A stretch of DNA of 64,000 bases from Candidatus Shapirobacteria bacterium (GTDB lineage: Bacteria > Patescibacteriota > Microgenomatia > UBA12405). The stretch lies in assembly GCA_041658125.1 (NCBI GenBank), contig JBBAAS010000001.1, positions 15,917 to 79,916 on the forward strand. The letters run 5' to 3'. The notes below the pieces were generated by a model that was not told the DNA's origin, did no database searches, and saw nothing but the letters and a program-made list of their open reading frames with translations. A program made the position numbers and the translations under genes. Positions 7,083-31,354 of the stretch are shown one piece after another; the first letter of the stretch is position 1; each line of letters starts with the position of its first letter.

Positions 7083-8041
7083 GCTTCTTGGTAGAAACCG
7101 GAAAATTTTGAGTTTCCAGTTAATTTATAAAACAAAAGTCGGAGATAAGCGTTGAGATATAAGAGTTTTTGAATGAGCTTAAGATGGTGGGGGTGATGCT
7201 TTTGGGTGAAATGAAGCACGCCGAGATATTCGTTGACCAAGGGATCAGCTTGGGAAACGGCTGAAGCCCGACCAAGGTGAATTATTTGGGGGCCGATAAG
7301 GTACCAATGCTCTAGTTCCGGATACTTTTGCTTAATGCGATAACAAAGTTCATATTCTTCACCATACATAAAATAGTTTTCGTCAAAGCCGTTAACGGAG
7401 TCAAGAATCGGACGGCGGATAAGAAGATAAGCACCGGTAAGCCAGTCTTGGCGATGGTCTTTGAGATAGAAATTACTGTGGGTGTAAAAATCGGGGGTGT
7501 GGGGATGGAAGGGCTTGACCAAGTAATTGAAAAAAGGCAGATCATCAAGACCAATAGACCAAGTAAAAACATTGGACAAATTGGGGAAAAATCCACCGGA
7601 GGCCTGAACCAAACGGTTGGGATTTAAAAGTTGAGCGGTACACATAGAGGCTTTGGGATTGGAGGCAAGCCAAGTGAGGGTTTGACTGATGGCCGAATGA
7701 AGGATTATGGTGTCGGAGTTTAAAAGTAAAACGTAATTACCACAGGCAACTTTAATGCCCTGATTGTTGGCTTTAGAAAAACCGACATTTTTATTGTTTT
7801 GAATAATTTTGTAATTGTTTTTAGAGATTTTTTTCTGTTGGAAAAAATGATTGATATCGGCTACCGAAGTATCGGAGGAAGCGTTGTCGATAATGATTAT
7901 TTCGGTAGATACTTTTGAAGAGCTATCGCCGGTGTCGGAAAAATGAAGGCCTTTATCTAAAAGAATTGAATGCAGGCAATCAAGAATAACCTTGGAAGTG
8001 TTAAAAGAAAGAGTGATAATGGATAAGGTAGGGTTAGTCAT
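7058..8041 (-). CDS. Glycosyltransferase family 2 (GT-A)
   Basis: 327 aa. LSIITLSFNTSKVILDCLHSI ... IIIIDNASSDTS. Confidence 0.85.
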   Translation of the reverse strand: MTNPTLSIITLSFNTSKVILDCLHSILLDKGLHFSDTGDSSSKVSTEIIIIDNASSDTSVADINHFFQQKKISKNNYKIIQNNKNVGFSKANNQGIKVACGNYVLLLNSDTIILHSAISQTLTWLASNPKASMCTAQLLNPNRLVQASGGFFPNLSNVFTWSIGLDDLPFFNYLVKPFHPHTPDFYTHSNFYLKDHRQDWLTGAYLLIRRPILDSVNGFDENYFMYGEEYELCYRIKQKYPELEHWYLIGPQIIHLGRASAVSQADPLVNEYLGVLHFTQKHHPHHLKLIQKLLYLNAYLRLLFYKLTGNSKFSGFYQEACSKISKF

Positions 8042-15886: not shown

Positions 15887-17278
15887 AACCAGATAAAAAT
15901 TGTTCTGACAGGGAAAGGTTCTGACGGTTTGATGCGAGCCCAAAAGACTTAATTCATAGTAGTTGGTATTTTGATCAAAGGTACTTTGGTCAACGACAAC
16001 GGTCATGTACTCCGCTTGGCCATTTTGAGTTTCGATATCTTTAATATTACAACCGGCTTTTTTGAGGAGAAAACGATGTTCGGGTCCGTTATGAAACGGG
16101 TGGAGGCTTGATTGAACGGAGACGAAAGTTGGTTCCTTAAATGAGTCGCAGTAGTTTCTGAAACATTGTTCCATTTGGGTGGTAGTGCGGGAGGCGGTCG
16201 TAAAATATTGCTTTAGCCTGGTTGGTTGTAGATAATTTAAACTAAAAAATACAAGGCTTAGAACGGTAACAAGAGGCCGAAGACCGGCAATAATCACGAA
16301 AAGTAGTGAGGTAAAGGCGAAAATATAATGGGCTTGAATAGTGATTGGGGTAACAAAGGCCAGTATGGTGATACCTAAATACAGAAAAGAGGCGACGAAT
16401 TGTAAATTTTTCCTTTTTTGTCTATTTTTATAGAGTAAAAAAAGACAGAGTAAAATGCTGGCGATAAAGAGGGAAATATTCAGTGTTTGATTGGAGAAAG
16501 AGAAAACGTATTGTGACAGATTATTCAGACGATCGACGAAAGCCAAGTCTTTTTGAGGAGGTGAGTTTTTGGTCAAGAGAGCGGTGGTAAGAAAAAAGCG
16601 ATGACGAAGTTCAAAAAAAATCGTTGGTAGATTAATTAAGGCCAGAGCGCCAAAGAGTGATAAGGCTATCGCTTTAAAATTGGAACGAGAAAATAAAAGC
16701 CAATATAAGGCAAAAATAATTAGAAGTGGGGCGACGGAATAAGAAATGGAGATGGCGGTGGCAATACCGGCAGAAAAAAGGATAGTTTTTGGGATCGAGA
16801 ATTTTTTTAATAAAAGATAAAAAGAAATAATGGAGATAATCAAGAATGGGGTGACAAATGATGGATTCCAAACGTAACGACCTTGAATAATGTATTGGGG
16901 ATGAATGGAGATGAAGAAAAAAGCGATCAATAAAACCTTGGTTAAAGGCTTATCTTTTCTTAGTAAATAAAGACCTAAGAGAAAAGAAAAAAGATAGATA
17001 AAAGCGAGAGTATAAACCAAAGAAATCGGGTTACCTTTAGAAAGGAGAAAGCCGGGGTAAAGTAGATAAAAATAAATAGCAGATTGGTTAAAGGGGAGAG
17101 CGCTAGTTTGGGGGCCGAGGAGTGGTGGTTTGCCTGTTTCTTGCCAAGTTTGTAGTACCATCATGTCCCGACCCATATCGTTGAAAAAGAAAAAAGAGTC
17201 GTTAATATTGTAGAAGCGGAGGAAAAGGAACAAAAATATTACGCCGATAATCGGTAATAAACGAAGGATTTTAGACAT
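15863..17278 (-). CDS. Polytopic membrane protein with C-terminal soluble domain, possible GT-C-like glycosyltransferase
   Basis: 471 aa. ~10 TM helices followed by a ~110-aa hydrophilic, Cys-containing C-terminal domain. The start codon shares one nucleotide with the stop of the AbiEii gene (TAATG). Confidence 0.4.
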   Translation of the reverse strand: MSKILRLLPIIGVIFLFLFLRFYNINDSFFFFNDMGRDMMVLQTWQETGKPPLLGPQTSALPFNQSAIYFYLLYPGFLLSKGNPISLVYTLAFIYLFSFLLGLYLLRKDKPLTKVLLIAFFFISIHPQYIIQGRYVWNPSFVTPFLIISIISFYLLLKKFSIPKTILFSAGIATAISISYSVAPLLIIFALYWLLFSRSNFKAIALSLFGALALINLPTIFFELRHRFFLTTALLTKNSPPQKDLAFVDRLNNLSQYVFSFSNQTLNISLFIASILLCLFLLYKNRQKRKNLQFVASFLYLGITILAFVTPITIQAHYIFAFTSLLFVIIAGLRPLVTVLSLVFFSLNYLQPTRLKQYFTTASRTTTQMEQCFRNYCDSFKEPTFVSVQSSLHPFHNGPEHRFLLKKAGCNIKDIETQNGQAEYMTVVVDQSTFDQNTNYYELSLLGSHQTVRTFPCQNNFYLVLIRKTIP

Positions 17279-18012
17279 TAGGTTAGCCTGGCAATTTCAT
17301 TATCTAAAAACATAAGAGTTTCCTCTTTTAGGGTTTTTCTGATTTTGTTATAAGTTTCAAACGGTAAAAGAGTATTTAAGTCCTGATCAATTAGGGTTTG
17401 AGTAATTTTTTCGTTTATAAAATGACGAAGGTAAACAAGATATCTTTTAACCGATAGTCCGGTTCTTTCAATTATTACGGCTTCACTGTATTTCAAATTT
17501 TTTAGAAAGAAGTAATGAATATCGTAGATATCCCGGCCGGCAATCGATTCTCTACGATCATACCGATCTTTGACGGCTACCATTTTGTTGGCAAAAATGC
17601 TTTTCTGGTCTTGACAGTTGACGGTACGGTTAATTTCCGGCAAAAATACCGGAGAATATCGGTTGGATTTGACGATAACATTAAGAGCGTCAATTTTTAA
17701 AGTGTTTCTTTGATTTGGGGAGTTAGGATATTTCAAAAAAAACTCTAAAGCTTTTTGGCTTTCCTGATATAAAATAAATCCAAGTTTGTCAAAAACTTTA
17801 TGAAACTCCGCTCTTAACTCTTTTTCATTTACCCCAGTCTTAAGGTCAAAATCAAGATCAACTGAAAACCGATCAAGAATGCCCATCATTGAGGCGCAGG
17901 TACCGCCCTTGAAATATAAAGAGTTTGATAAGGTAGAGTTATCGATGATTTCGGTTAGAGTGCGAAGTAGGTGAGCTTTATGAATGGTGTCGGTAGGTCT
18001 TAGGGTGATCAT
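17278..18012 (-). CDS. abiEii: AbiEii/DUF1814 nucleotidyltransferase toxin (type IV toxin-antitoxin)
   Basis: 244 aa. YFKGGTCASMMGILDRFSVDLDFD matches the AbiEii (DUF1814) GGTAL...RFSEDLDF core. Sits immediately downstream of, and overlapping (ATGA), an AbiEi-like gene. Confidence 0.65.
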   Translation of the reverse strand: MITLRPTDTIHKAHLLRTLTEIIDNSTLSNSLYFKGGTCASMMGILDRFSVDLDFDLKTGVNEKELRAEFHKVFDKLGFILYQESQKALEFFLKYPNSPNQRNTLKIDALNVIVKSNRYSPVFLPEINRTVNCQDQKSIFANKMVAVKDRYDRRESIAGRDIYDIHYFFLKNLKYSEAVIIERTGLSVKRYLVYLRHFINEKITQTLIDQDLNTLLPFETYNKIRKTLKEETLMFLDNEIARLT

Positions 18013-18551
18013 AAATAGCCAAGTTGTTGTTGATAATTCTTAACTAAAGTCCAGTCAATAACATTGTCGGCGTCAAAATGATAATTTTTTTGAAAATATA
18101 ACATATCGGCAATTGCCCGCTCGGTATTGGCCAAGAAAACACCTCTGTCGTTTTGAGTTATGCCAAGAGAATTGTTTAAACATTGAGGTTTTAACTGTCT
18201 GACTAAATAGGCATGGTCGTTAATGTTAAAGTTGGCGGGAGTACTGGAAATAAAAGTTATTTTTGCAGGCGATTGGTTAATAATCCCCTCTTTTGCTAAA
18301 ACCGATTCGGTACTTAAATAGCTAAAGTGATTTATGGCCCTAAAGCCTATTTCTACCGGATCCAGTTGACTTAACGGAATGGTGCTATAGAGTCCCTTTT
18401 GAACACTGATCAGTATCTCTTTTTTGATCAGTCGAGCAATGGTTTTATAGAGTGTGTTTTGATTCGAAATATTCCAGAGAACTTTTAAGTCTGAAGTGTG
18501 GAATAATTTTTGTGGTTGTTGGATTAATATACCGATTTTGTCTACAGTCAT
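18009..18551 (-). CDS. abiEi: AbiEi-family antitoxin/transcriptional regulator
   Basis: 180 aa. LISVQKGLYS ... SYLSTESVLAKEGII resembles the AbiEi N-terminal domain (rGvY ... sYiSleSAL). 4-bp overlap with the toxin gene. Confidence 0.6.
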   Translation of the reverse strand: MTVDKIGILIQQPQKLFHTSDLKVLWNISNQNTLYKTIARLIKKEILISVQKGLYSTIPLSQLDPVEIGFRAINHFSYLSTESVLAKEGIINQSPAKITFISSTPANFNINDHAYLVRQLKPQCLNNSLGITQNDRGVFLANTERAIADMLYFQKNYHFDADNVIDWTLVKNYQQQLGYL

Positions 18552-18590
18552 AGTTGTGTTATCTGGTACTAATATGTACAGGATAACATA

Positions 18591-18627
18591 ACTATTATGC
18601 TTGTCAAGAGGTCTTTCTATTATGCTT
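18591..18627. promoter_or_regulatory. Candidate operator: two copies of CTATTATGCTTG (direct repeat, 25-bp spacing) in the divergent abiEi / dehydrogenase promoter region
   Basis: Exact 12-mer at 18591-18602 and 18616-18627, directly upstream of the minus-strand abiEi start (18551). AbiEi antitoxins are known to autoregulate by binding paired repeats. Confidence 0.3.
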
Positions 18628-18703
18628 GAAATAGAAGAGAGTTGTTAACGCGGTAGAAACGAAGGAAAAGGGAAAGCAAACTAATGATAGAATTTGGAGA
18701 TTT

Positions 18704-19984
18704 ATGATAATTTTGAAAAAGGTAGCAGTAATTGGATTAGGATATGTAGGATTGCCGACGTTGGTGGCTATTCATAAAACCGGTAAATACCAAGTAGTGG
18801 GTTTTGATATTGATAAAAAAAAGATAAAGAATATGAAAAATGGGATATCCCCGATTGAAGATGAGAATGTTGTTAAGGCGATAAGGAAAAAATCTCTTTT
18901 GGTTACAGATGATGAAAACGATTTGCGTGATAGCGATGTTTTCTTAATATGTGTGCCGACGCCGGTTTTTTCAGACTATTCCCCTGATTACGGTCCGGTG
19001 GAATCAGCGACAAAAGTTTGTGCGAAATACTTAAAGAAAGGTTGTCACTTTGTTTTGGAATCAACGGTAAATCCGGGGACTTGTGAAGAGATAGTAAAGC
19101 CAATTTTAGAGAGTGTAAGTGGTTTGACGGCGGGGAAAGATTTTAATGTTGCCCATTGTCCCGAAAGAATAAATCCCGGCGACAAAAAGTGGAATATATA
19201 TAACATTAACCGAAACATAGGGTCTATTAATAGCGAATGGAATGGAATTATCGCTGATTTTTATAGAAGTTTTGTCACTGATGCCAAAATTAACGAAGTG
19301 AGTTGTTTGAAAGTAGCAGAGTCGACAAAAATTGTGGAAAATACTTTTAGGGATATTAACATTGCTTATGTTAATGAATTGGCACAATCGTTTGACGCGA
19401 TGGACATTGATTTGCATGAGACTTTAATGGCGGCCTCAAACAAACCCTTTGCTTTTATGGTTCATTGGCCGGGTTGTGGAGTCGGTGGACATTGTATTGC
19501 GGTGGATCCTTATTACTTGATAAAGAGGGCGGGGTTAGCCGGTTTTAATCATCGGTTTTTAAAGATTGCTCGGGAGATTAATAATAGTATGCCGGAGTAT
19601 GCGGTGAACAAATTGATGCTGGGATTAAATGAAATGGGATTATCGGTTAAGGGAACAAAAATTACTCTTTTGGGATTAAGTTATAAGGCAAACGTTGGTG
19701 ACTTAAGGGAAAGTCCGGCGTTGGAAATTGAAAAATGTTTACGGAAGCTTGGGGCCGATTTAATTGTTTATGATCCGTATGTCGATAATGGGATAAAAAA
19801 TTTAAGAGAAGCAATAAAAGATTCAAAAGCAATCGTATTGGCAACTGCACACAAAATATTTGTTGAAGAGTTGTTGGATAAATTAAAAAATAGTAAGGTA
19901 AGATTAATTATTGATGGAAGAAACTGTTTAGACAGCGGTAAAATTAAAAAATTAAAAATAATTTATAAAGGAATTGGAAGATGA
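18704..19984 (+). CDS. Nucleotide-sugar dehydrogenase (UDP-glucose/GDP-mannose dehydrogenase family; WecC/WbpA/Ugd-like)
   Basis: 426 aa. VAVIGLGYVGLPTLVAI NAD-binding motif, ICVPTP, catalytic-Cys region GCGVGGHCIAVDPYYL. Confidence 0.85.
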   Translation: MIILKKVAVIGLGYVGLPTLVAIHKTGKYQVVGFDIDKKKIKNMKNGISPIEDENVVKAIRKKSLLVTDDENDLRDSDVFLICVPTPVFSDYSPDYGPVESATKVCAKYLKKGCHFVLESTVNPGTCEEIVKPILESVSGLTAGKDFNVAHCPERINPGDKKWNIYNINRNIGSINSEWNGIIADFYRSFVTDAKINEVSCLKVAESTKIVENTFRDINIAYVNELAQSFDAMDIDLHETLMAASNKPFAFMVHWPGCGVGGHCIAVDPYYLIKRAGLAGFNHRFLKIAREINNSMPEYAVNKLMLGLNEMGLSVKGTKITLLGLSYKANVGDLRESPALEIEKCLRKLGADLIVYDPYVDNGIKNLREAIKDSKAIVLATAHKIFVEELLDKLKNSKVRLIIDGRNCLDSGKIKKLKIIYKGIGR

Positions 19985-20025
19985 AAAAATTAGTGGTTAT
20001 GATTCCGGCTTATAACGAGCGATGA
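19981..20025 (+). pseudogene. Truncated N-terminus of a DPM1-like GT2 gene (14 codons then stop)
   Basis: atgaaaaaattagtggttatgattccggcttataacgagcgaTGA encodes MKKLVVMIPAYNER*. The ATG overlaps the dehydrogenase stop (ATGA). The motif matches the N-terminus of the intact GT2 at 26059 (LILIPAYNEE). It is cut off 10 bp before a convergent low-GC gene. Confidence 0.55.
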
Positions 20026-20034
20026 CGAGTAGCA

Positions 20035-21306
20035 TCAATAGCTTTTACTAACTATAAAAACATAATTAGTTGTAGCTGAACCGCCAATATTTAACATCAT
20101 GGAATTATTGGTATTTTTGACTTGGTAACTACCTGCAGTATTTGTAATTTGTTTATGTAAATCTAGCAACATTCTGACTCCGGTAGCTCCGACTGGATGG
20201 CCACATCCGATTAGTCCTCCGCTAGGATTAATTGGATTTTTACCATTAAATTTAATTGAGCCGTTTTCAACGGCCTCATACTCCTTGCCGGGTTTGGTTA
20301 TACCAAAAGCAGAGATAGCGGCATATTCGCTGGAAGTGAAACAATCATGAGTCTCATATAAATCAATGTCATTTTCTTTAAGGTTGGACCGTTTTAGAGC
20401 ATCCAAGACAGTTTGTCTTGTCCAGGGTAATACAAAAGCTTGATCTTGTGATTCTTTTATTTTTTCGGAAAATTGGACAGGGGCAACCCGATGTCCCCAA
20501 CCGATTATTTCAGAAAAATTTTTATTGGTTAAGTTTCTTTTGGTTTTGTAATTTTGTAAATATTTTTTAGAGGATAAAATTACAACTGCAGCGCCATCAG
20601 TAACTTGAGAACAGTCGGCAACGGCAAGTTTACCGCCGACCAACATATTATTTTTAGTATTGCGATTATTGGCATGTTCTTTATTCATGAACCAACTTCT
20701 TGTTTGAGCATTTGGATTATTTTTAGCATTACTGTAATTAATTGCTGAAATCTCGGCTAAACAATCCAAATATTTTTTTTCATCTAAGGAATATTTTTTT
20801 ATGTAAATATCAGCTAATTGACCAAAAAGTTTTGGAAAGGGAAAAGAAATACCTTTAGCCTCTTTATCGTAGTAAGCGGCGGTTCCTAAATAATCTCCAC
20901 AGAGGGCTGAATTGACAGTTTTCATTAATTCAATACCCAAAACTATAGCGACATCGTAATCCCCTGCCCTTATCTTTGAAGAAGCGGAATCGATGGCGAC
21001 TGAACCAGAGGCACAAGCGGCTTCATATCTGGCACTGGGGATGCCATAAAAAGAAGGATTAATTTCGGTAAAAAAAGCACCTAAATGGCCTTGGTTGAAG
21101 TATTGTTCACCATCGAAGTTACCAACAAAGAGACCAATTTTATTTTGTTTATTGAGGGAGAAAATTTCTTTATAGTCCAAGTTGGTATTTAGAAGAGTAT
21201 CTTCAACCACTTCCCGCATCATTGCTAAAAAAGTTTTGCCTTCTTTAACCCAATTTCTTTGAAAGTCTGTTTGAGAACCACCAATTATATAGACGGGGTT
21301 TTTCAT
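20035..21306 (-). CDS. Thiolase (acetyl-CoA C-acetyltransferase, SCP-x/archaeal-type thiolase superfamily)
   Basis: 423 aa. Nucleophile-Cys region [17 protein letters not shown]-terminal [17 protein letters not shown]. Confidence 0.75.
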
Positions 21307-21307
21307 A

Positions 21308-22603
21308 TTAGTTTGCTTTTATATAATTGCGAAAATCTAATTCGTTTTGTAGAGTATAAAATTTTGTTTTTTCAGAGTGTTGTGCGATTTCTTCTGGAAC
21401 TGATAGTTTATATTGTTTAATTAATTTAATTGCTTCTTTTTTGCCGCCTATTAGGTCAATTAAAGCACATGGCGGCAACCAGTTAAATCCATAAGCCATT
21501 ACCCTATCAAGATCCTCTTTATTTTTTACAACCGGTCTTATTAAAGATAGGGAATAACTAATATATCGGGCGAAAAAATATTTAATAATTTCTGATTCAA
21601 AAGTTTTAGTTTTTAACAGTAGTTCAAAAGCTTTGTTGTATTCTCCATTTGAGATTTTTTCTTTAACTTGATCGATAAATTCAATATTAAATTTTGGAAT
21701 TGGTTCATATATTTTTTTATTGATATTAAAAACTAATCTTTGATCACCTTCTTTTTTATAAAAACCTTGCCCACATTTATCACCTAAAGAATTATTTGAA
21801 ATTAAATATTCAACAAATTCAGGCATTTTATATGATTCATGGGCATAGTCGTTGGTTAGATTATAAATATTATTTACGATTGCTTTATGAACATCGAGGC
21901 CGACAAGATCAATGGTAGCGATTGGCGGTAAGCTTCGACCGGTAAACCCCCCTAATAATTTGTCCATAAGAGCAATTCCTCCTTCTTTTTGGTATTTTTG
22001 GGCAAACTGAAGGGTTTCATTAAGTAGCTGGAATCCGATTCTATTGCCAGCAAATCCTGGAGTGTCGTTAACAATAACAACTTTACGGTGTAAAGTTGTT
22101 TGTAAATAATCGAATAGTTCTTTTTGAATTTCGGGATCAGAATTCGGCCCGGCAATTAATTCACAAAGGATCATTTTGTATGGTGGGTTATAGAAATGGG
22201 TGCCGAAATAATGTCTTTGTTGGGTGGGAGTGAAACATTTTGATAATTCGGTAATGGAAAGACCGGAAGAAACGGTAGAGATAATGGTATTGTTTTTGGT
22301 TAATAAAGATATCTTGTGGTTTATTTGTTTTTTGAGTTCTAGATCTTCGGACGTAAGTTCGAAAACCCAATCACTTTCAGACAGACATTCTTTTAGATCA
22401 TCGTAAGTTTTAGGAATAAGTTGATCTTTAATAACATCAGATTTGATGGAGTCAACGGCGATATCAATTCCCTCTTGAGCTTTTTCTAAAGAACGGGCGA
22501 TCATAAATATTTTGGCATTGCCGAAACCAGCGATAATACCAGCGCAATGAGAGCCCATAGCACCGTTGGCGCCGAGAATAGTGACGGTTTTAATCAGAAT
22601 CAT
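21308..22603 (-). CDS. 3-hydroxyacyl-CoA dehydrogenase (NAD-binding 3HCDH family)
   Basis: 431 aa. [23 protein letters not shown]-terminal Rossmann fold and a 3HCDH-like middle region. Immediately upstream of the thiolase with a 1-bp gap. Confidence 0.7.
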
Positions 22604-22610
22604 TTGATTT

Positions 22611-23429
22611 TTATATTTTGGGAAAATGGTAATACTGTTTGAAAGAAGTGGTAGGAAAATCTTTGAGAATAGTTTTCAGTTTATTCAATGTTCTATTGAT
22701 ATTGTAATAGTGAATAAAATATTCTTTGGGTGGTAATTTTATTCTTGGCTGGAGAAGATCAATTTCCCGGGGATGAATATAAAAGATTACCGGTTGTTTT
22801 TGTTGATTTATTTTATGGGTAAAATATTTTATAAAGATAGAAGGGAAACAACGCAAATAAAAACCACCAGAAAATGGAATCCTTTTACGGAAGATTTGAT
22901 AGGTAGAAGGAGGAATTTCTAATATGCCCCCGATAGTACTTTGAAATTGGTCGGCATGATTATCTCCGTAAAGAAAAGTTTTAAAAGGGAAGATACTAGA
23001 TGAATATTTGAAACCATAATTTTTTAAAGTTTGCCAAAACCAGGGAGTTCGATTCTGATCAACGGACCATGCTGGAGCACGATAGCCAATTATTTTTTGG
23101 TGAGTTAAGTTCTCAAGAATATCTTTTGATTCTTTTACATCGTTTTCAAATTGTTTTTGGCTCATGTTGTAAATAAAGTTATGATGGAGTGTGTGACAAG
23201 CAATTTCATGTCCCTGTTTAAAAATTTCTTTGATTAGCTGTGGGTGTTTTTGGGCAATCTCACCGACGACAAAAAAGGTACCAAAATTATTGCTTTGTTT
23301 AAGCAATTTTAATATTTTTTCAGTTGGATCTAAAATTCTGAAGTCGTTGGTTTTTATGGATCGCCCTTCTGGTGAGGAATGATACCAGTCCTCTAGATCT
23401 ACAGAAAAGATATTTGTATACTGCTTCAT
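22611..23429 (-). CDS. Polysaccharide deacetylase (CE4), PEP-CTERM-locus-type
   Basis: 272 aa. IFSVDLEDWYHS N-terminus, HEIACHTLHH metal-binding His motif. Confidence 0.7.
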   Translation of the reverse strand: MKQYTNIFSVDLEDWYHSSPEGRSIKTNDFRILDPTEKILKLLKQSNNFGTFFVVGEIAQKHPQLIKEIFKQGHEIACHTLHHNFIYNMSQKQFENDVKESKDILENLTHQKIIGYRAPAWSVDQNRTPWFWQTLKNYGFKYSSSIFPFKTFLYGDNHADQFQSTIGGILEIPPSTYQIFRKRIPFSGGFYLRCFPSIFIKYFTHKINQQKQPVIFYIHPREIDLLQPRIKLPPKEYFIHYYNINRTLNKLKTILKDFPTTSFKQYYHFPKI

Positions 23430-23490
23430 TGAGCTTTAGATAGGTATGTGATAAATTATTTCAAGCATTTTTAAGCTTTATTGATGGAAT

Positions 23491-24567
23491 ATGATAACAA
23501 ATAATAAATTTTCGTGGTGTGTTGGCGATTACCAGAGAAAGTATAAAAAAAGTATATTGGGACTATTTAAAAAGGAATATCCAGAATCAGTACTTTGGAA
23601 AGATGAATTTTTTGAGTGGCAACATTTTAAAAATCCGGCTGGAGAATCAATAATTAAACTGGCGATAAATACCAAAGAAGAAGTGGTGGGTTTTTATTGT
23701 GTTTTATTGCAGGATTATTTTATCAACAGAAAACTGTTTCACGGATCAATTTCTTTGAGTACGTTGGTTCGAGAGGATTATAGGGGTATGGGTATTTTTA
23801 CAATATTAGCTCAGGAATGTTACAAAGAGTGTTTTAAAAGAGGTGTCAAGTTTACTTTAGGTTTTCCGAATCAAAATTCATACCCCGGTTTTATTAGAAA
23901 ATTGGGGTTCTTAAATTTGGGTGAATTACCGCTTCTCATAAAACCTTATAGATTGAGTAATTTGGTAGCAGAGAAGCTAAATAGTGGGGTGATGGGGATG
24001 ATGGTGCGGCCAATTGATTTTCTAATAAATTTATTTAATAAAGATAGTTGCTGTGGATTGAGTGAGGATATGACCGATTCATTTCATGATTTGTTTTGGA
24101 GAAAGGCAAGAAAAAAATACCAGATAGTAGCAAATCGGGATGCAAGATTTATTGATTGGAGAACAAAATGGCCAGAAAGAAAATATAAATATTTTTGTGT
24201 CAAAAAAAATAACAAGATTGAAGGATACATAATACTTGGATTATTGGGAACAAAGAATGTAAAAAACGGTTTAATTGTGGATTTTGTGGTTAATGATTCA
24301 TCTGACGCCCAAAGTATTGGAAATGATCTACTGAAGGAAACTAATCATTACTGGAAAATGGAAAATGTTGATCAAGCAGGTTGTTTAATATCGAAAAATT
24401 CCTTTGAATTTAAGTTGTTGAGGAAAAACGGTTATTTTATTTGCCCAAATTTTTTAAAACCTCAACCAATGGTGGCTGTCTTTAAATGGCACGGAAATGA
24501 TTGTCCCTTAGAAGTGTCTGATCTTCAAAAATGGTATATTACCACGATTGATTATGATGTGGCGTAA
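23491..24567 (+). CDS. FemAB-related / BioF2-like (Acetyltransf_6) GNAT-fold acyltransferase
   Basis: 358 aa. Region VVGFYCVLLQDY ... LVREDYRGMGIFTILAQE ... KFTLGFPNQNSYPGF resembles FemAB-like N-acyltransferases found in exopolysaccharide loci. Confidence 0.55.
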   Translation: MITNNKFSWCVGDYQRKYKKSILGLFKKEYPESVLWKDEFFEWQHFKNPAGESIIKLAINTKEEVVGFYCVLLQDYFINRKLFHGSISLSTLVREDYRGMGIFTILAQECYKECFKRGVKFTLGFPNQNSYPGFIRKLGFLNLGELPLLIKPYRLSNLVAEKLNSGVMGMMVRPIDFLINLFNKDSCCGLSEDMTDSFHDLFWRKARKKYQIVANRDARFIDWRTKWPERKYKYFCVKKNNKIEGYIILGLLGTKNVKNGLIVDFVVNDSSDAQSIGNDLLKETNHYWKMENVDQAGCLISKNSFEFKLLRKNGYFICPNFLKPQPMVAVFKWHGNDCPLEVSDLQKWYITTIDYDVA

Positions 24568-24584
24568 AAAGTAAAAACAAAAAT

Positions 24585-26057
24585 ATGAAAGTGCTTTTAG
24601 TTACACCCCCATTTTATAGAATTCTGGGGATTTACAATCGGTATTTTCCATTAGGAATTACTCAATTGGGTACTGTTTTAAAAGATAAAGGATATAAAGT
24701 AGCAGTTTATGATGCTGATTATTATTCTGATCCGGACACGATTGATTATTCGCGTATCTCAGATAAGTTTCCCACTTATTTAAAATCTTTTAAAGAAAAG
24801 AACCAAATTTGGAGTGAAGTAATTGAAAACATAAAAAAATGGAAACCAGACGTAGTCGGAATATCCGCTTATACCACTTTTGCTGCTTCGGCTTTTCATT
24901 TAGCAAAATTAGTAAAGGAAAATATTGAAAACTGCAAGGTGATAATGGGTGGACCACATGCGACTGTCAGAGCTGAGGAAATTTTAGAAATTTGTCCTGA
25001 GGTAGATTATGTGGTCAGGGGTGAGGCAGAAGAGACAATGATTGAACTAATGAACCATGTTACTGGAAGGAAAAATGACGTAGAGAGTATTTCGGGAGTG
25101 TCTTTTAGAAAAGGGAAAAAGATTGTCTCGAATGGAGACAGATTGCAACCTAAAAATCTAGATAATTACCCTATGTTGAATAGATCTTTATTGATGAATA
25201 AAAATAAGTTATCATCGGAAGATATGGGTTTAATTATGACTAGCAGAGGTTGTCCGTATAGGTGTACATATTGTGCTTCAACAAAAGGAATTAGATATCG
25301 ATCGATAGGTAGTGTTATGGAGGAAGTCGAGGCTGTTTTTGAGAAATATGGGACGAGACAATTTACTTTTAAAGACGACTCTTTTACTGTAGACAGAAGC
25401 CGAGTGGTTGATTTGTGTAACCGTTTAATACAATGGAAGGTTAAAATAAATTGGGAATGTAACACGAGAGTTAATTTGGTAGATGAAGAACTACTGCGCT
25501 TGATGAAGAAGGCTGGGTGTAATTTTGTTAAAGTGGGAGTCGAGACTGGATCAGCTAGGGTACTTAAAATGATGAATAAGGGAATTAGTTTGGATCAGGT
25601 AAGGTCAGCATCAAAATTGTTTAGAAAGGTTGGATTACACTGGACTGGGTATTTTATGATGGGAGTGGTGGGGGAAACAGAGAAGGATATTCAGAAAACT
25701 GTGGATTTTATGCACGAAATAAAGCCAAACTTGGGTGTTATCGCGGTTTACGAGGCTTTTCCGGGAACTGTAATGTTTGAGGAAGGTTTAAAAAAAAGGT
25801 TGTATAGAGAAAATATGAGCTTGGAAGATTTTTATTCCATGGCTCCAGATAGTTATTATAAGGTTGATCCGAGAGTACAAAATGAAAAAATAACCCCGAA
25901 GAGATTTGAAATTATAAAAAAAGAAGTTAATAAAGAATTTCATCAACAAAACATGATGGTAGGAAATGTGATGGCGATGGCCAGGTCTAAAATAAGAGTT
26001 TATTACAGGGATCCAAAGATATTTTTTGATGATGTAAAAAAGATGTTAAGCTATTGA
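24585..26057 (+). CDS. Cobalamin-binding (class B) radical SAM enzyme
   Basis: 490 aa. N-terminal B12-binding-like Rossmann domain (KVLLVTPPFYRI ... GYKVAVYDAD), radical SAM cluster motif SRGCPYRCTYCAS (CX3CX2C). Confidence 0.8.
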   Translation: MKVLLVTPPFYRILGIYNRYFPLGITQLGTVLKDKGYKVAVYDADYYSDPDTIDYSRISDKFPTYLKSFKEKNQIWSEVIENIKKWKPDVVGISAYTTFAASAFHLAKLVKENIENCKVIMGGPHATVRAEEILEICPEVDYVVRGEAEETMIELMNHVTGRKNDVESISGVSFRKGKKIVSNGDRLQPKNLDNYPMLNRSLLMNKNKLSSEDMGLIMTSRGCPYRCTYCASTKGIRYRSIGSVMEEVEAVFEKYGTRQFTFKDDSFTVDRSRVVDLCNRLIQWKVKINWECNTRVNLVDEELLRLMKKAGCNFVKVGVETGSARVLKMMNKGISLDQVRSASKLFRKVGLHWTGYFMMGVVGETEKDIQKTVDFMHEIKPNLGVIAVYEAFPGTVMFEEGLKKRLYRENMSLEDFYSMAPDSYYKVDPRVQNEKITPKRFEIIKKEVNKEFHQQNMMVGNVMAMARSKIRVYYRDPKIFFDDVKKMLSY

Positions 26058-26058
26058 T

Positions 26059-26790
26059 ATGATTTTTAGAAAAGTTTTGATCTTGATACCGGCGTACAAT
26101 GAAGAGGCAAATATTGCGACTACTATAGCGAATATAAAAAAATTTACGAAAGGGAAAGGCTGGGATATTTTAGTTGTAGATGATGGGTCAAAAGATAAAA
26201 CATATTTAAAAGCAAAAAAGTGTGAGGTTATTGTAGTTCGCCATCCTTTTAATATGGGGTATGGGGTAGCAATACAAACCGGTTATAAGTTTGCTATTGA
26301 TGGAGGATATGACATACTGGTTCAAATTGATGCAGATGGTCAGCATGATCCCAAATATATTCCTAAGATGATCAATACATTACGAAGGGAGAAATTGGAT
26401 GTGGTCATTGGATCAAGATTTCGAAAAAAAACTGATTATCATGCGCCTTTTATGAGAAGATTGGGGATGATACTGTTTAGTTTGATTGTCAGTGCTGTAA
26501 CTCGTAGAAAAGTTACTGATTCGACGTCCGGCTATCAGGTTATTGATAAAAAAGTGTTGAATTTCTTGTCATCTGATTCTTTTCCTTGTGATTATCCGGA
26601 CGCTGACCTGTTAATTATGTTATATTTTGCCGGATTTAAAGTGGATGAAATACCCATGAAAATGTATGAAAATAAAACAGGAAAATCAATGCATGGTAGT
26701 CTCATCAAAAATTTCTATTATGTAATGAAAATGTCTTTATCGATTTTAACGATTGTTCTTAGAAAAGTTACAGGTTTACCAAGTTTTTAA
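26059..26790 (+). CDS. Glycosyltransferase family 2, DPM1/GtrB/ArnC-like polyprenyl-phosphate sugar synthase
   Basis: 243 aa. VLILIPAYNEEANIATTIANI ... DILVVDDGSKDKT ... VQIDADGQHDP (DxD), small soluble GT-A typical of Dpm1/GtrB. Confidence 0.8.
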   Translation: MIFRKVLILIPAYNEEANIATTIANIKKFTKGKGWDILVVDDGSKDKTYLKAKKCEVIVVRHPFNMGYGVAIQTGYKFAIDGGYDILVQIDADGQHDPKYIPKMINTLRREKLDVVIGSRFRKKTDYHAPFMRRLGMILFSLIVSAVTRRKVTDSTSGYQVIDKKVLNFLSSDSFPCDYPDADLLIMLYFAGFKVDEIPMKMYENKTGKSMHGSLIKNFYYVMKMSLSILTIVLRKVTGLPSF

Positions 26791-26792
26791 AT

Positions 26793-27143
26793 ATGCCACT
26801 GGTACAAAAACTATTTTTCTATATTGTAGCCATGTTTTTATTGATGTTAATACTTAACTTAGTGAGAAAGCGAAAGTTGAGAGAAAATTATAGCTTATTG
26901 TGGATTTTCATATCTTTGGTGTTGATATTAATAGTTTTACTTTATCCTTGGTTGGTAAAATTTTCTAACTTATTTTTGGCTAATCCGACATCAATGATAA
27001 TGTTTTGTGGTATGGTAGCTTTATTATTATTAATATTACAGTTATGTTTAATGAATTCAGTTCAGGCGACACAGATAAAAAATTTAGTGCAAAAAATTAC
27101 TCTTTTAGAAGAAAAGGTTAAAAATGTATCTAAGAAAAAGTGA
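26793..27143 (+). CDS. Small 2-3 TM membrane protein (DUF2304-like; GtrA-position partner of DPM1-like GT2)
   Basis: 116 aa. Hydrophobic helices, conserved-looking LNLVRKRKLRENYSLLWI, C-terminal coiled coil. Starts 3 bp after the GT2 stop. Confidence 0.5.
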   Translation: MPLVQKLFFYIVAMFLLMLILNLVRKRKLRENYSLLWIFISLVLILIVLLYPWLVKFSNLFLANPTSMIMFCGMVALLLLILQLCLMNSVQATQIKNLVQKITLLEEKVKNVSKKK

Positions 27144-27191
27144 TTTGATTTATTTATAGACTTTAATGGTTTATATTGGTTAAATATAAGA

Positions 27192-28637
27192 ATGGATAAT
27201 AAAAATAATAATAGAGTTTATTTACTTTATCCTCCTATTTCAAAGAAAGAAAGATACTCGTCGGATTTGGGTAGTGCGGGAGGAGAACAAATTCCCTTGG
27301 GAATTTTTTGTTTGGCTGCTTATTTAAGAGAAAAAGGGTATGAAATGGCGGTTACTGATGGAGAGTCTGAAAAATTAACGACAAAACAAATAACAAGACA
27401 AATTAAAAAATTTGATCCATTTGTAGTTGGAATAAGTTCGACTACGGTTGCTTTTCACAGGGCGTTGGAAATGGCGAAATTAATAAAGAAAAAGTTTCCT
27501 AAAGTAATAATTTTAATTGGGGGTCCTCACGTAACATCAAATTATAAGGATGCTTTATCATTTGGTGTATTTGATTATGGTGTTTTAAGGGAAGGTGAAA
27601 TCACAACAGTTGAATTGTTAAAGACCATAAAGGGCAAGGGTAAAATTGAAGAAGTAAAAGGAATAGCTTATAAAAAAGATGGAAAAGTTATTGTTAATGA
27701 ACCCAGAGAGTACATTAAAAACTTAGATGAATTGCCGTTTCCCGCATATGATTTGATTGAGGATATAAATTTATATACACCTGATTTGTCAAATTATATG
27801 TCAACGCCGGTGGTTAATATTATGACAAGTCGCGGTTGTCCGAATCAGTGTACTTTTTGTGATAGAGCTGTATTTGGTCAGTTTTATAGAGAAATGTCGG
27901 CAGAAAGAGTAGTAGAATTAATAAAATATTTAGTGGAAAGATATAAAGTTCGAGAGATCGATTTTGTTGATGATACTTTCTTGATTAATAAATTACGATT
28001 TAAAAAAATCTTTCGATTACTAAAGGAAGAAGGAATTAAATTTTACTGGACATGTACAAGTAGAGTTAACGTTGTCGATTACGAGATTTTGAAATTGGCT
28101 AAAGAAACCGGTTGTTGGCACATTGCTTTTGGAATTGAGTCGGGTGACGAGGGTATTTTGAAACTGATTAAAAAGAATATTACTATGGAACAAGTGAGAA
28201 AGGCGTTGGGATGGTGTAAAGAACTTGGGATTAAGAGTAAGGGTTACTTTATTGTAGGCCATCCAGGCGATACTTTGGAAACAATAAATAAAACAATTAA
28301 ATTGGCTTATAACTTGCCTTTAGATGATATATTAGTAACCATAAATACGCCAATTCCGGGGTCACCCCAATATTATTTTATTAAGGAATATGGGGATTTT
28401 GATGAGTCTGATTGGTCTAAATTCAATTGTTGGAGGCCGGTGTTTATTCCTAAGGGATTAACGAAAGAAATACTTTTGAAAAAACAAAGGGAAATGTATC
28501 GAAAGTTTTATGTAAGGCCAAGAATTATATGGCGATATTTAAGGGGTACCTTGGGTCGAGGTGGGATGAAGAGGTTAAAATCATTAATGGGAGCGGCTAA
28601 ATATCTGATGTCTAAACCGAACCTGGAGGGTTTATAA
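27192..28637 (+). CDS. Cobalamin-binding (class B) radical SAM enzyme
   Basis: 481 aa. B12-binding-like N-domain (GYEMAVTDGE ... VVGISSTT ... ILIGGPH), cluster motif SRGCPNQCTFCD. Confidence 0.8.
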   Translation: MDNKNNNRVYLLYPPISKKERYSSDLGSAGGEQIPLGIFCLAAYLREKGYEMAVTDGESEKLTTKQITRQIKKFDPFVVGISSTTVAFHRALEMAKLIKKKFPKVIILIGGPHVTSNYKDALSFGVFDYGVLREGEITTVELLKTIKGKGKIEEVKGIAYKKDGKVIVNEPREYIKNLDELPFPAYDLIEDINLYTPDLSNYMSTPVVNIMTSRGCPNQCTFCDRAVFGQFYREMSAERVVELIKYLVERYKVREIDFVDDTFLINKLRFKKIFRLLKEEGIKFYWTCTSRVNVVDYEILKLAKETGCWHIAFGIESGDEGILKLIKKNITMEQVRKALGWCKELGIKSKGYFIVGHPGDTLETINKTIKLAYNLPLDDILVTINTPIPGSPQYYFIKEYGDFDESDWSKFNCWRPVFIPKGLTKEILLKKQREMYRKFYVRPRIIWRYLRGTLGRGGMKRLKSLMGAAKYLMSKPNLEGL

Positions 28638-28649
28638 CCGTAAGTTTAT

Positions 28650-30554
28650 ATGAATTTAGGTATTTATTTAGTTCCAATTGTATTTTTTTTGAAGCTTGGT
28701 TTAGTTGCGTTGGTATTTAGCCTTCCTTTAATTATTGATAGATTAAAGAAAAATCTTTCCGTAGACTTAATCTTAGTTTATTTATTTGGTCAAGCAAATT
28801 TAATATTATCGATTTTTATATACAATAGTATTAATTATTTTTGGGATATCAGAAAAATAAGCATTGTTGTTTTTTCTATTGTAGTTTTGGTTGTGGAGTC
28901 AATACTTGTGTTTATTCTTAATAAGAAAGAGTATCTTGCCGAGAAAAAAAGGTTTGTTTTTGGAGATAATTGGAAGTGGTTTATCATCATTTTTATGATA
29001 GTTACAATTTTTTATGGATGGATAAATTCTTTATATTTTGACCGGCAAGAGAATAAAATATTTAATCCAGGGTATGGGATAAACCATGATTATATTGTTG
29101 TTTTGGGAACGTCAAAGGCGTTTTTTAAATATACTAAGGATAGTAGCCTTTTGATAAGGGATTTGTATTATCATTGTTATGAAGCGGGTTATCCGTGTGG
29201 CGGAACACATATAAGTGCTTATTTCTCAGATTTATTTAAAACAGATGTTTACCTTGTTTACCAACGGATTCTAACTTGGTTGTCTGTGTCGACAATATTT
29301 GTGATTAATTATTTTCTTGTGAAATTTTTTCGGAAGGGAAATTTACTTTCCAATATAGTATTAATTTTGGTCTCAGTTGCCAGCGTATTTAATTTTTTGT
29401 CAATGAGTTTCATAGATGCATCAGTTTTTGGTTCCACTGCAGTAATACCCTTTTTATTTTTATCCATATTTCTGACATTACAGTATATTAAAGAAAAGAA
29501 AAATATATACCTATTGCTAATTTTTATAGTTTTGGTAGACATGGTTTATATTTATACCTATTTTGGTGGTATTTATTATTTATTATTTTTGGCGACGGCT
29601 CTCATAATTTATCGGAGAAAATTTTGGGAAGGCTGGAAAATGGTGAAAATAATTGCTTTACTTTTAATAGCATTTATTTTACCTCTAAATCTGCTTCCAG
29701 CAATAAAATTTTTAACAAAACAAGTTGAGTCTCCAGTGAAGGAGGTAAGCTTGTTTAAAGGGATGAATGGTAATATGGCCGGTTTTAATAATCCGATGAC
29801 TGCTTTTTCAATATGGACATCAAACGCAGATTATAGGTTCTATGAAGCAAATTATTATAATACATGGTTGTTTTTTACATTAATGGCACCGATTATCTTT
29901 TTTTTGTTGGTCTCAGAAAAAGATAAAATTATGCTTAATAAAGAAATATTAGTGATCGCATTACCTTTTGCGATAATGATTGGAGTTGGTTTTTGGATAA
30001 CCAAGTCTTCTTATCAAAGTGGGAAGGCTTTACATTGGTGGTCTGATATCTGGCCTTTAATTTTTTATTTATTGCTTTATAAATCACTTTTAGATAAAAG
30101 GATTGTAATAAGATTATTAGTATTTTCATACTGTTTGATATTTTTTTACTACTCTTTTAAGAGTGCTGTTTTTGCTAGTTCATATTTTGGTAAACCGATT
30201 GTGAAGAGTAATTATGAACTTATGAATTTGGAGCCTGAATTATGTAAAGATGACAGTAAACTTTTATTTTTAGGTAGAGATGAGATGTCTAAATATTTTT
30301 TAGATACCTGTAAAAACATAACTTTTTATTATGACAGGTTTGATAATAATGCCGCTTTCTGGGAGATTATAGCATTAAATAAACTTATTAGTTTGGATCA
30401 GAAATGTGAAAATAATAGTTTGAGTTTAACGAAGATTGATTATAGTAGTTATAATGAAGTGTTAGTTGATAAGTGTTTTAAATTTAATAATCCATCGTAT
30501 GTAATTGAAAAAGAATATGAAAACTACAACTTATGGAAACTTAAAAGCTTATGA
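28650..30554 (+). CDS. Large polytopic membrane protein, possible GT-C-type transferase (GtrC position)
   Basis: 634 aa. >12 predicted TM helices plus a C-terminal soluble domain. No family motif recognised by eye. Confidence 0.35.
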   Translation: MNLGIYLVPIVFFLKLGLVALVFSLPLIIDRLKKNLSVDLILVYLFGQANLILSIFIYNSINYFWDIRKISIVVFSIVVLVVESILVFILNKKEYLAEKKRFVFGDNWKWFIIIFMIVTIFYGWINSLYFDRQENKIFNPGYGINHDYIVVLGTSKAFFKYTKDSSLLIRDLYYHCYEAGYPCGGTHISAYFSDLFKTDVYLVYQRILTWLSVSTIFVINYFLVKFFRKGNLLSNIVLILVSVASVFNFLSMSFIDASVFGSTAVIPFLFLSIFLTLQYIKEKKNIYLLLIFIVLVDMVYIYTYFGGIYYLLFLATALIIYRRKFWEGWKMVKIIALLLIAFILPLNLLPAIKFLTKQVESPVKEVSLFKGMNGNMAGFNNPMTAFSIWTSNADYRFYEANYYNTWLFFTLMAPIIFFLLVSEKDKIMLNKEILVIALPFAIMIGVGFWITKSSYQSGKALHWWSDIWPLIFYLLLYKSLLDKRIVIRLLVFSYCLIFFYYSFKSAVFASSYFGKPIVKSNYELMNLEPELCKDDSKLLFLGRDEMSKYFLDTCKNITFYYDRFDNNAAFWEIIALNKLISLDQKCENNSLSLTKIDYSSYNEVLVDKCFKFNNPSYVIEKEYENYNLWKLKSL

Positions 30555-31354
30555 TTTCAATACCATTTCTTTCTAAGAAAGCCAGTATTCCTTTTCCCCC
30601 TTTGGGTATGAGGGAGCTAGTTGGACCAATCAATACCAGCGATTTTGATAACCCTGAAGGGAAATTAATCTACCCTTATTTTAAAGCGAAAGATTATAAA
30701 AAAGTTTTTGATTTTGGGTGTGGTTGCGGGCGGTTGGCTAGGCAATTACTTATGCAAGAGCCTGTTCCTAATAAATATACGGGAATTGATCTCCATCTAG
30801 GGATGATCAATTGGTGTATCACTAACTTGTCACCCTGTAATAAAAATTTTAAATTTATCCATTACGATGTTTATTATAAAGCCTTTAACCCTACCGGCTC
30901 ATCAAAATTGTTACCTTTTCCGGTTGAACACAATCAATATACTCTAGCTCTTGCGCACTCTGTTTTTACTCATCTGATTGAAAAGGAAGTCGACTTTTAT
31001 TTAACAGAAATTACTAATGTCTTATGTGACCATGGGGTCTTTTTTGCCAGTTGGTTTCTTTTTGAAAAAAAATATTTTCCGATGATGCAGGAATTTCAAA
31101 ATTCTCTTTATATTAACCTAGATGATCCTACTAACGCTGTTATTTATGACAAAAATTGGCTTTTAGATATCTATTCTAAACACGGTTTATCTATCGAGAT
31201 TATTAAACCTCCCGGTGCTCGAGGTTTCCAATGGGTTGTTGTTGCCCGTAAGATTAATAGAAAACACCAGACGATTTTCCCTCAAGACGATGCCCCTATC
31301 GGTATAGTCCGAGCGTCATTACTTAAAAAAGAACCCTACAAAATTGGTTTATAG
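30551..31354 (+). CDS. Class I SAM-dependent methyltransferase
   Basis: 267 aa. Motif I VFDFGCGCGRLARQLL. 4-bp overlap with the upstream gene. Confidence 0.7.
   Translation: MISIPFLSKKASIPFPPLGMRELVGPINTSDFDNPEGKLIYPYFKAKDYKKVFDFGCGCGRLARQLLMQEPVPNKYTGIDLHLGMINWCITNLSPCNKNFKFIHYDVYYKAFNPTGSSKLLPFPVEHNQYTLALAHSVFTHLIEKEVDFYLTEITNVLCDHGVFFASWFLFEKKYFPMMQEFQNSLYINLDDPTNAVIYDKNWLLDIYSKHGLSIEIIKPPGARGFQWVVVARKINRKHQTIFPQDDAPIGIVRASLLKKEPYKIGL

Follow-up and report, generated by a model that had tools for sequence, protein, structure and literature searches.

A probable remnant of a GT2 glycosyltransferase gene at the joint of two gene blocks in a glycan locus of a Candidatus Shapirobacteria bacterium

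A 14-codon open reading frame (ORF) that overlaps the stop codon of a nucleotide-sugar dehydrogenase gene in a Candidatus Shapirobacteria bacterium is very probably a non-functional remnant, namely the first ~13 codons of a gene for a GT2 glycosyltransferase of the polyprenyl-phosphate type, left behind by deletion or cassette replacement in a hypervariable surface-glycan locus. The ORF, termed stub in the following, lies at 19981–20025 on the forward strand of a stretch of 64,000 nucleotides (GenBank assembly GCA_041658125.1, contig JBBAAS010000001.1, positions 15,917 to 79,916) that was analyzed as a whole and is referred to as the window. Unless stated otherwise, coordinates are those of the window. 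A first-pass annotation, made without database searches, had described the stub as the fossil start of a DPM1-like GT2 gene that was translationally coupled to the dehydrogenase gene and has been lost or displaced.

Results

The Stub and the Preceding Dehydrogenase Gene

The gene preceding the stub (18704–19984, forward strand) is intact and encodes a nucleotide-sugar dehydrogenase of 426 amino acids. The protein is of the UDPG/MGDP type, comprises all three UDP-glucose/GDP-mannose dehydrogenase domains (Pfam PF03721/PF00984/PF03720), scores 375 bits against the NCBIfam model TIGR03026 (cutoff 190 bits) and is nearest to UDP-ManNAc/UDP-GlcNAc 6-dehydrogenases. Over its full length it shares 93% amino acid identity with its orthologue at locus L004 of a related organism.

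The stub itself consists of 45 bases from ATG to TGA (ATGAAAAAATTAGTGGTTATGATTCCGGCTTATAACGAGCGATGA) and translates into MKKLVVMIPAYNER, followed by its own stop codon (TGA, 20023–20025); DNA and translation are exactly as quoted in the first-pass annotation. Its ATG (19981–19983) overlaps the TGA of the dehydrogenase gene (19982–19984), which results in the sequence ATGA at 19981–19984, and a Shine-Dalgarno-like AAGGAA, located inside the dehydrogenase gene, ends seven nucleotides upstream of the ATG. Both remaining forward frames past the stub are full of stops.

Intact Glycosyltransferase Genes in Relatives

At L004, the dehydrogenase gene is directly followed by an ATGA-coupled GT2 gene for a protein of 321 amino acids beginning with MKKLVVMIPAFNEEKRIG. 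Coupled pairs of a dehydrogenase gene and a gene for a GT2 protein of ~320 residues are furthermore present at L044 and L045 (ATGA) and at L006 (GTGA), the four-nucleotide ATGA overlap at L004, L044 and L045 being identical to that in the window. Hence, the overlap of the stub ATG with the upstream stop codon does represent a coupled junction, as proposed, and the synteny of dehydrogenase and GT2 genes, the inspection of which had been suggested along with this proposal, is found in these four relatives. At L048 a GT2 gene of the ~320-residue class follows the dehydrogenase gene after a gap of 26 nucleotides, at L005 a methyltransferase gene is situated between the two, and at L047 and L015 a Wbp-like set of oxidoreductase, acetyltransferase and aminotransferase genes is found in place of the GT2 gene. 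L047 also features a 58-residue gene call (positions 7442–7618 of that locus) that matches DegT_DnrJ_EryC1, is located downstream of an intact DegT gene and possibly represents one more fragmentary gene, here in a related glycan locus. A scan of genome contigs with the dehydrogenase yielded a single locus, L003 from a member of the Saccharibacteria (60% identity), where a GT2 homologue (47%) is encoded 1.3 kb downstream of the dehydrogenase, behind a methyltransferase gene on the opposite strand, such that this locus is of little help for the comparison.

The relationship of the stub to these genes is apparent on the DNA level. Between 19981 and 20018, 37 of 38 nucleotides are identical to the start of the L004 GT2 gene and 35 of 38 to that of L044. 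Overall, window and L004 DNA are 91.4% identical over 18678–20018, identity collapses after 20018–20020, and the blastn alignment to L006 stops at the same base as that to L004, i.e., at 20018. When translated, MKKLVVMIPAYNE of the stub aligns without gaps to MKKLVVMIPAFNEE of the L004 protein and to four other orthologues, with P9, A10, N12 and E13 of the stub invariant across the aligned orthologues (13 conserved residues). The stub thereby exhibits the N-terminal beta1 strand and the subsequent P-A-x-N-E motif of the GT-A fold. Judged from these alignments, the likeness of the stub to GT2 gene starts is far beyond chance. The notion of a fossil GT2 start, originally based on the motif, is thus backed by homology to the 5' ends of those intact GT2 genes that occupy the syntenic position in relatives. 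The bases from 19981 to about 20018–20020 probably represent a true 5' remnant of an ArnC/DPMS/AglJ-like GT2 gene, and the last one to two codons of the stub together with its stop codon would derive from newly joined sequence.

The intact orthologues contain PF00535, a DXD-type motif (NIDADGQ) and a C-terminal hydrophobic hairpin with stretches at residues ~240–300. They match the solved structures of ArnC (9hwj, E = 1e-9), the alignment covering residues 2–294, and of Pyrococcus DPMS (5mlz, E = 6e-8). In NCBIfam they match AglJ and PpgS best and also dolichyl-phosphate hexose transferase, all below the curated cutoffs. These structure and family matches suggest that the product of the ancestral gene was a polyprenyl-phosphate glycosyltransferase carrying a membrane hairpin at its C-terminus. 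DPM1-like is a fair label for this protein, which would have been of the ~320-residue class and not of the 243-residue type encoded at 26059.

Absence of the Gene Body From the Window

In a tblastn search of the 64-kb window with three intact orthologues, no GT2 remainder was found; the only matches were a 20-codon region at the stub and a paralogue with 35–38% identity at 26059. Since the stub ends after 14 codons, it lacks a complete PF00535 domain with DXD-type motif, which elsewhere in the window occurs only in paralogues, and the C-terminal transmembrane hairpin of the lost GT2 protein is likewise absent from the window. A protein database search with the L004 GT2 protein returned only full-length relatives and no displaced remainder, the closest relative (P0241, 93%) stemming from another sample and being again encoded in a dehydrogenase-coupled gene. 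Of the two fates envisaged in the first-pass annotation, loss is therefore supported within the window, while displacement has no support inside these 64 kb; deleted or replaced is the wording that fits better. The gene at 26059–26790 (forward strand) had served there as the point of comparison for the stub. It is intact, its product of 243 amino acids begins with MIFRKVLILIPAYNEE and contains PF00535, and to this extent the comparison is valid; with only 35–38% identity to the orthologues of the stub, it is a paralogue and not of the stub's type. For the same reason it was rejected as a candidate for the missing remainder.

A GT2 gene inactivated by point mutation, with its body still located downstream and disrupted by nonsense or frameshift mutations, would explain the premature stop and nothing more. 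We attribute practically no probability to it, because none of the three forward frames past 20025 bears similarity to GT2, tblastn finds no body and the opposite strand of the DNA in question carries a full-length thiolase gene. Reading through the stop of the stub leads into the antisense flank of this thiolase gene. The use of a read-through frame without resemblance to GT2 as an argument against the fossil, as had been envisaged, is ill-posed, because the gene body appears to have been removed and not point-mutated.

The Joint and the Thiolase Cassette

The breakpoint can be confined to 20019–20026: GT2-type homology ends at 20018–20020, and homology to the thiolase cassette of another relative, L010, begins at 20027 (blastn). 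The convergent gene beyond the breakpoint (20035–21306, reverse strand) encodes a full-length acetyl-CoA acetyltransferase (thiolase), the Pfam thiolase domains of which reach profile position 143 of 144 and which scores 593 bits against NF004936 (cutoff 375 bits). Its stop codon (complement of 20035–20037) lies nine bases past that of the stub. The protein shares 91% (91.5%) of its amino acids with the counterpart in L010 and 89% with that on the P0122 contig. The thiolase gene is the outermost gene of the cassette that now abuts the stub. It is followed by co-oriented genes for a 3-hydroxyacyl-CoA dehydrogenase (21308–22603, reverse strand) and a polysaccharide deacetylase/DUF3473 protein (22611–23429, reverse strand) and, within 23491–27143, by genes for a GNAT protein (358 amino acids), a B12-radical SAM protein, the 243-residue GT2 and a DUF2304 protein. 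This cassette is conserved on the P0122 contig and in L010, with genes of matching length. Gene lengths on the P0122 contig are near-identical, the deacetylase having 270 amino acids there vs. 272 in the window, and 20027–26367 of the window is 88.7% identical to L010 over 6.3 kb. On the other hand, the 8 kb downstream of the L004 GT2 gene do not match the window. As L004 homology ends and L010/P0122 cassette homology begins at this point, the stub is located exactly at the joint of two blocks of different ancestry. We thus encounter the features by which gene remnants are recognized, i.e., DNA homology to a syntenic intact gene that ends abruptly and a sequence past the break that has a different history. 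A repeat search at the joint (20019–20034) did not return any repeats, and IS ends and microhomology were likewise not found there.

Some further properties of the cassette deserve mention. The pair of thiolase and 3-hydroxyacyl-CoA dehydrogenase genes recurs in glycan clusters of these CPR genomes, namely in the window (20035–22603, reverse strand), at L007 (6713–9278), on the P0122 contig and at L015 (4749–7242). The pair adjoins genes for DegT aminotransferases, FdtA and hexapeptide or GNAT acyltransferases; it could serve as a source of 3-hydroxybutyryl-CoA for N-acylation of amino sugars. The best thiolase homologues from outside the CPR stem from Leptospira (64–68% amino acid identity). 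At 24585–28637, two genes for B12-binding radical SAM proteins (490 and 481 amino acids) bracket those for the 243-residue GT2 and the DUF2304 membrane protein, a GT2-DUF2304 pair with a radical SAM neighbor being present on the P0122 contig as well; the set may constitute a putative glycan-modifying, perhaps methylating, module. Within a block of ~91% identity (GNAT protein 91.3%), the DUF3473 deacetylases of the window (22611–23429) and L010 (2936–3742) share only 66.5% of their amino acids, another sign of fine-scale mosaicism in the cluster.

Reality of the Joint

The source is metagenome-assembled, and the breakpoint lies within a short conserved GT2 motif region (IPAxNE) that is common to paralogues. 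Both circumstances could be taken to indicate a chimeric contig, in which a contig end with the dehydrogenase-GT2 pair was erroneously connected to an unrelated contig carrying the thiolase gene. Such an assembly artifact is extremely improbable. The junction is 100% identical over 221 nucleotides in two other assemblies, L001 and L002, which originate from different runs (SRR8449827 and SRR8449812), and base-for-base identity in both argues that the joint is not chimeric. A chimera formed at a shared motif would, moreover, run on into another GT2 gene and not into the antisense flank of a thiolase gene. Finally, L010, which belongs to another project, also joins the thiolase flank to a decayed stub.

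L010 contains both flanks of the window region (26367–20027 and 18680–17055) but is devoid of the dehydrogenase gene, and a mere 113 nucleotides are found where the window carries dehydrogenase gene and stub. The 42 nucleotides adjoining the thiolase stop in L010 match the stub at 24 of 42 positions in an ungapped alignment. Matches as good as this were reached by a fraction of 4–7e-5 of control 42-mers and by none of 16 neighboring offsets, the maximum there being 18, which corresponds to a corrected p of ~1e-3. L010 thus appears to hold a more decayed copy of the same scar that no longer contains an ORF. It had been stated that a fossil would be contradicted if relatives, too, encoded a short terminated peptide at the homologous position. 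The only counterpart is the L010 scar, and its decay and the lack of an ORF strengthen the fossil reading. The L010 spacer was also inspected for remnants of the dehydrogenase gene; local and gap-tolerant alignments turned out to be weak and of low complexity (p = 0.01–0.04), and such remnants were not accepted.

Possible Functions of the Stub

Retention of the 14-codon ORF by selection, be it as a coupled mini-ORF that tunes dehydrogenase expression or mRNA stability, as the gene for a small peptide or as a homology anchor for cassette swaps, is suggested by the ATG that is still coupled to the upstream stop and preceded by AAGGAA at a distance of seven nucleotides, and by the finding that only two of 40 nucleotides differ from L004 while the L010 copy has decayed. 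We nevertheless judge a selected function very unlikely. Both the ATG and the Shine-Dalgarno-like bases are part of the conserved C-terminus of the dehydrogenase (KGIGR followed by the stop) and are constrained by this protein alone: the ATG survives because the dehydrogenase was kept intact and its stop codon overlaps the ATG of the lost gene. Two differences in 40 nucleotides, where about five would be expected, are not significantly below the neutral expectation and, given 18% divergence at four-fold sites of the dehydrogenase gene, are compatible with neutral decay. In addition, the ORF occurs in a single population and is missing from the L010 copy. Neither a terminator-like site overlapping the stub nor RNA structure was found, folds of the stub region being no better than those of shuffled sequences (z = -0.5), and promoter-like hits in a 2-kb scan were at shuffle expectation. 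Ribosomes terminating on the dehydrogenase gene may well re-initiate and produce the 14-mer, which, if made, would presumably be without a role.

A Second Fossil Gene Start and an AbiE Module

A second fossil gene start is located on the other side of the dehydrogenase gene (approximately 18611–18682, reverse strand). It corresponds to the ~30 initial codons of a gene for a membrane protein of 471 amino acids, in an allele of the L004 type (...SLFLRFYRVNNSLLFQA followed by two stops), and is part of a direct repeat, D1. It lacks a start codon and constitutes a diverged direct repeat of the 5' end of the live gene at 17186–17228 (43 nucleotides, 77% identity). The fossil reads ...RFYRVNNSLLFQA up to the two stops, and its portion ...RFYRVNNSLLFQ resembles RFYRINNSLLFQ of L004, unlike RFYNINDSFFFF of the live gene. 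In L010 the same remnant is present with an intact ATG (MTKINNLIVIFLVLLFLFLRFCRINNSLLFQA followed by a stop).

The live membrane-protein gene and its fossil 5' end, and thus the repeat copies, enclose a pair of genes (17278–18551) for the type IV toxin-antitoxin proteins AbiEii (toxin, 17278–18012, reverse strand; Pfam PF08843, NCBIfam NF047376 for the AbiE pair) and AbiEi (antitoxin, 18009–18551, reverse strand). The pair is an insertion relative to L004, where the step from 1706 to 1755 corresponds to that from 17241 to 18678 in the window, and it is also missing in L015. Amino acid identities between window and L010 range from 97.5% for AbiEii to 91% for the thiolase, 66% for the deacetylase and 48% for the membrane protein. 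The AbiE module and the initial ~35 codons of the membrane-protein gene have the appearance of DNA that is mobile or was shared recently.

History of the Locus

In the order of events that we infer, a GT2 gene would once have been translationally coupled to the nucleotide-sugar dehydrogenase gene. Deletion or cassette replacement would then have removed it from about codon 14 onward and joined the stump to the 3' flank of the convergent thiolase gene, which belongs to a different conserved glycan-modification cassette, whereupon the stub frame would run to the first in-frame stop in the joined DNA (TGA, 20023–20025). As a relative with the arrangement dehydrogenase, full GT2, thiolase was not found, a simple deletion is indistinguishable from a cassette replacement.

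A purely vertical history with a single event fits poorly. Compared with L004, only two of 40 nucleotides of the stub are different (5%), compared with the L010 copy 18 of 42 (43%), although the flanks are diverged from L010 by only ~11% overall; at four-fold sites, divergence amounts to 0.18 between window and L004 (dehydrogenase gene) and to 0.27 between window and L010 (thiolase gene). It therefore appears likely that the locus later recombined with an allele of the L004 type or that a patch of this type was inserted.

The latter possibility is the main rival to loss of the GT2 body on site. Here, an L004-type fragment of ~1.4 kb, which starts at about codon 32 of the membrane-protein gene, includes the divergent promoter region and the complete dehydrogenase gene and ends at about codon 13 of the GT2 gene, would have been placed between AbiEi and thiolase genes in a recipient that never had a GT2 gene at this site, and stub and membrane-gene fossil would be the ragged right and left ends, respectively, of an imported fragment with a single complete gene. 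The segment from ~18611 to 20020 indeed ends on both sides with truncated 5' stubs of L004-type alleles, L010 has the same flanks without the dehydrogenase gene, and the dehydrogenase gene is closer to L004 than the flanks are to L010, as is evident from the four-fold site divergence given above. On the other hand, L010 already carries both fossils and is, thus, not a naive empty site. Furthermore, the more distant L015 exhibits the order membrane-protein gene, dehydrogenase operon and convergent thiolase gene, without AbiE, such that the position of the dehydrogenase gene looks ancestral. We consider insertion of a patch rather unlikely and favor the view that the GT2 body was lost through deletion or cassette replacement; the stub would be a dead remnant either way.

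It is also conceivable, and in our view quite unlikely, that the two fossil starts bracketing the dehydrogenase gene act as short homology anchors by which the cassette is deleted, re-acquired and refreshed between co-existing strains of Shapirobacteria. If true, this would explain why the stub is near-identical to L004 while the copy in L010, which has no dehydrogenase gene, has decayed.

Base Composition

A dip in total GC skew from about +0.3 to 0 at 20000–22000 raised the question whether the thiolase block had recently been acquired or inverted. This reading was rejected, because the plus-strand skew at four-fold sites of the thiolase gene is +0.84 and thus like or above that of its neighbors. 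The dip over the thiolase gene is an effect of protein composition. Across the whole window (1–64000), GC skew is very strong and independent of gene orientation, with values of about +0.2 to +0.35 in the majority of 2-kb windows. Twenty-one genes from both strands were tested at four-fold sites, and 20 of them have a plus-strand skew of +0.3 to +0.84, the exception being 30551–31354 with -0.10. A strong replication-strand mutational bias and a location of the window on one replichore are indicated by this pattern.

Discussion

With the loss of the GT2 gene, the dehydrogenase has become an orphan: sister strains possess a polyprenyl-phosphate glycosyltransferase that uses its product, and this strain does not. 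Its surface glycan is, consequently, probably a different one. The locus from ~15.8 kb to 27 kb presents itself as a strain-variable mosaic and suggests that surface-glycan loci of CPR bacteria diversify by the cut-and-paste processes that act on O-antigen and capsule loci in cultivated bacteria, and that scars of the same kinds are left behind. The finding opens no new mechanism or question.

Compared with established GT2 polyprenyl-phosphate glycosyltransferases such as ArnC, GtrB, DPM1/DPMS, AglJ and PpgS, the stub retains the N-terminal beta-strand and PAxNE, but has lost everything past residue ~13 including NIDADGQ, the acceptor loops and the membrane hairpin, such that no enzyme is possible. 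With translationally coupled genes it shares the four-nucleotide ATGA overlap in the same form as the intact pairs; in the window, however, the downstream cistron is a dead end of 14 codons. Mosaic blocks of very different divergence and the duplicated gene 5' end flanking the AbiE pair are reminiscent of homology-facilitated illegitimate recombination and cassette exchange, although in the window this mechanism is deduced from end points only, neither a donor/recipient pair nor microhomology at the joint having been demonstrated.

The closest parallels are found among remnants in O-antigen and capsule gene clusters. In Salmonella groups B1 and D1, remnants of wzy are located between wbaV and wbaU (PMC3715488), and among Escherichia coli O-antigen clusters "gene remnant" anomalies were reported for nine, which "indicate a relatively recent genetic event" (PMC7685785). 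In these cases as well as in the window, a short dead piece of a glycan gene marks the junction of blocks of different ancestry in a hypervariable surface-polysaccharide locus and is degraded to different extents in different strains, as exemplified here by window and L010 (PMC3715488; PMC7685785). The window differs in that its host is an uncultured CPR bacterium, that the joint shows neither an IS nor an H-repeat element, and that the remnant comprises only ~40 nucleotides, which have persisted as a coupled mini-ORF owing to the overlap of the ATG with the stop codon upstream. By this comparison, the stub appears to be an ordinary recombination scar and a further instance of the known gene remnants, in this case in a CPR bacterium.
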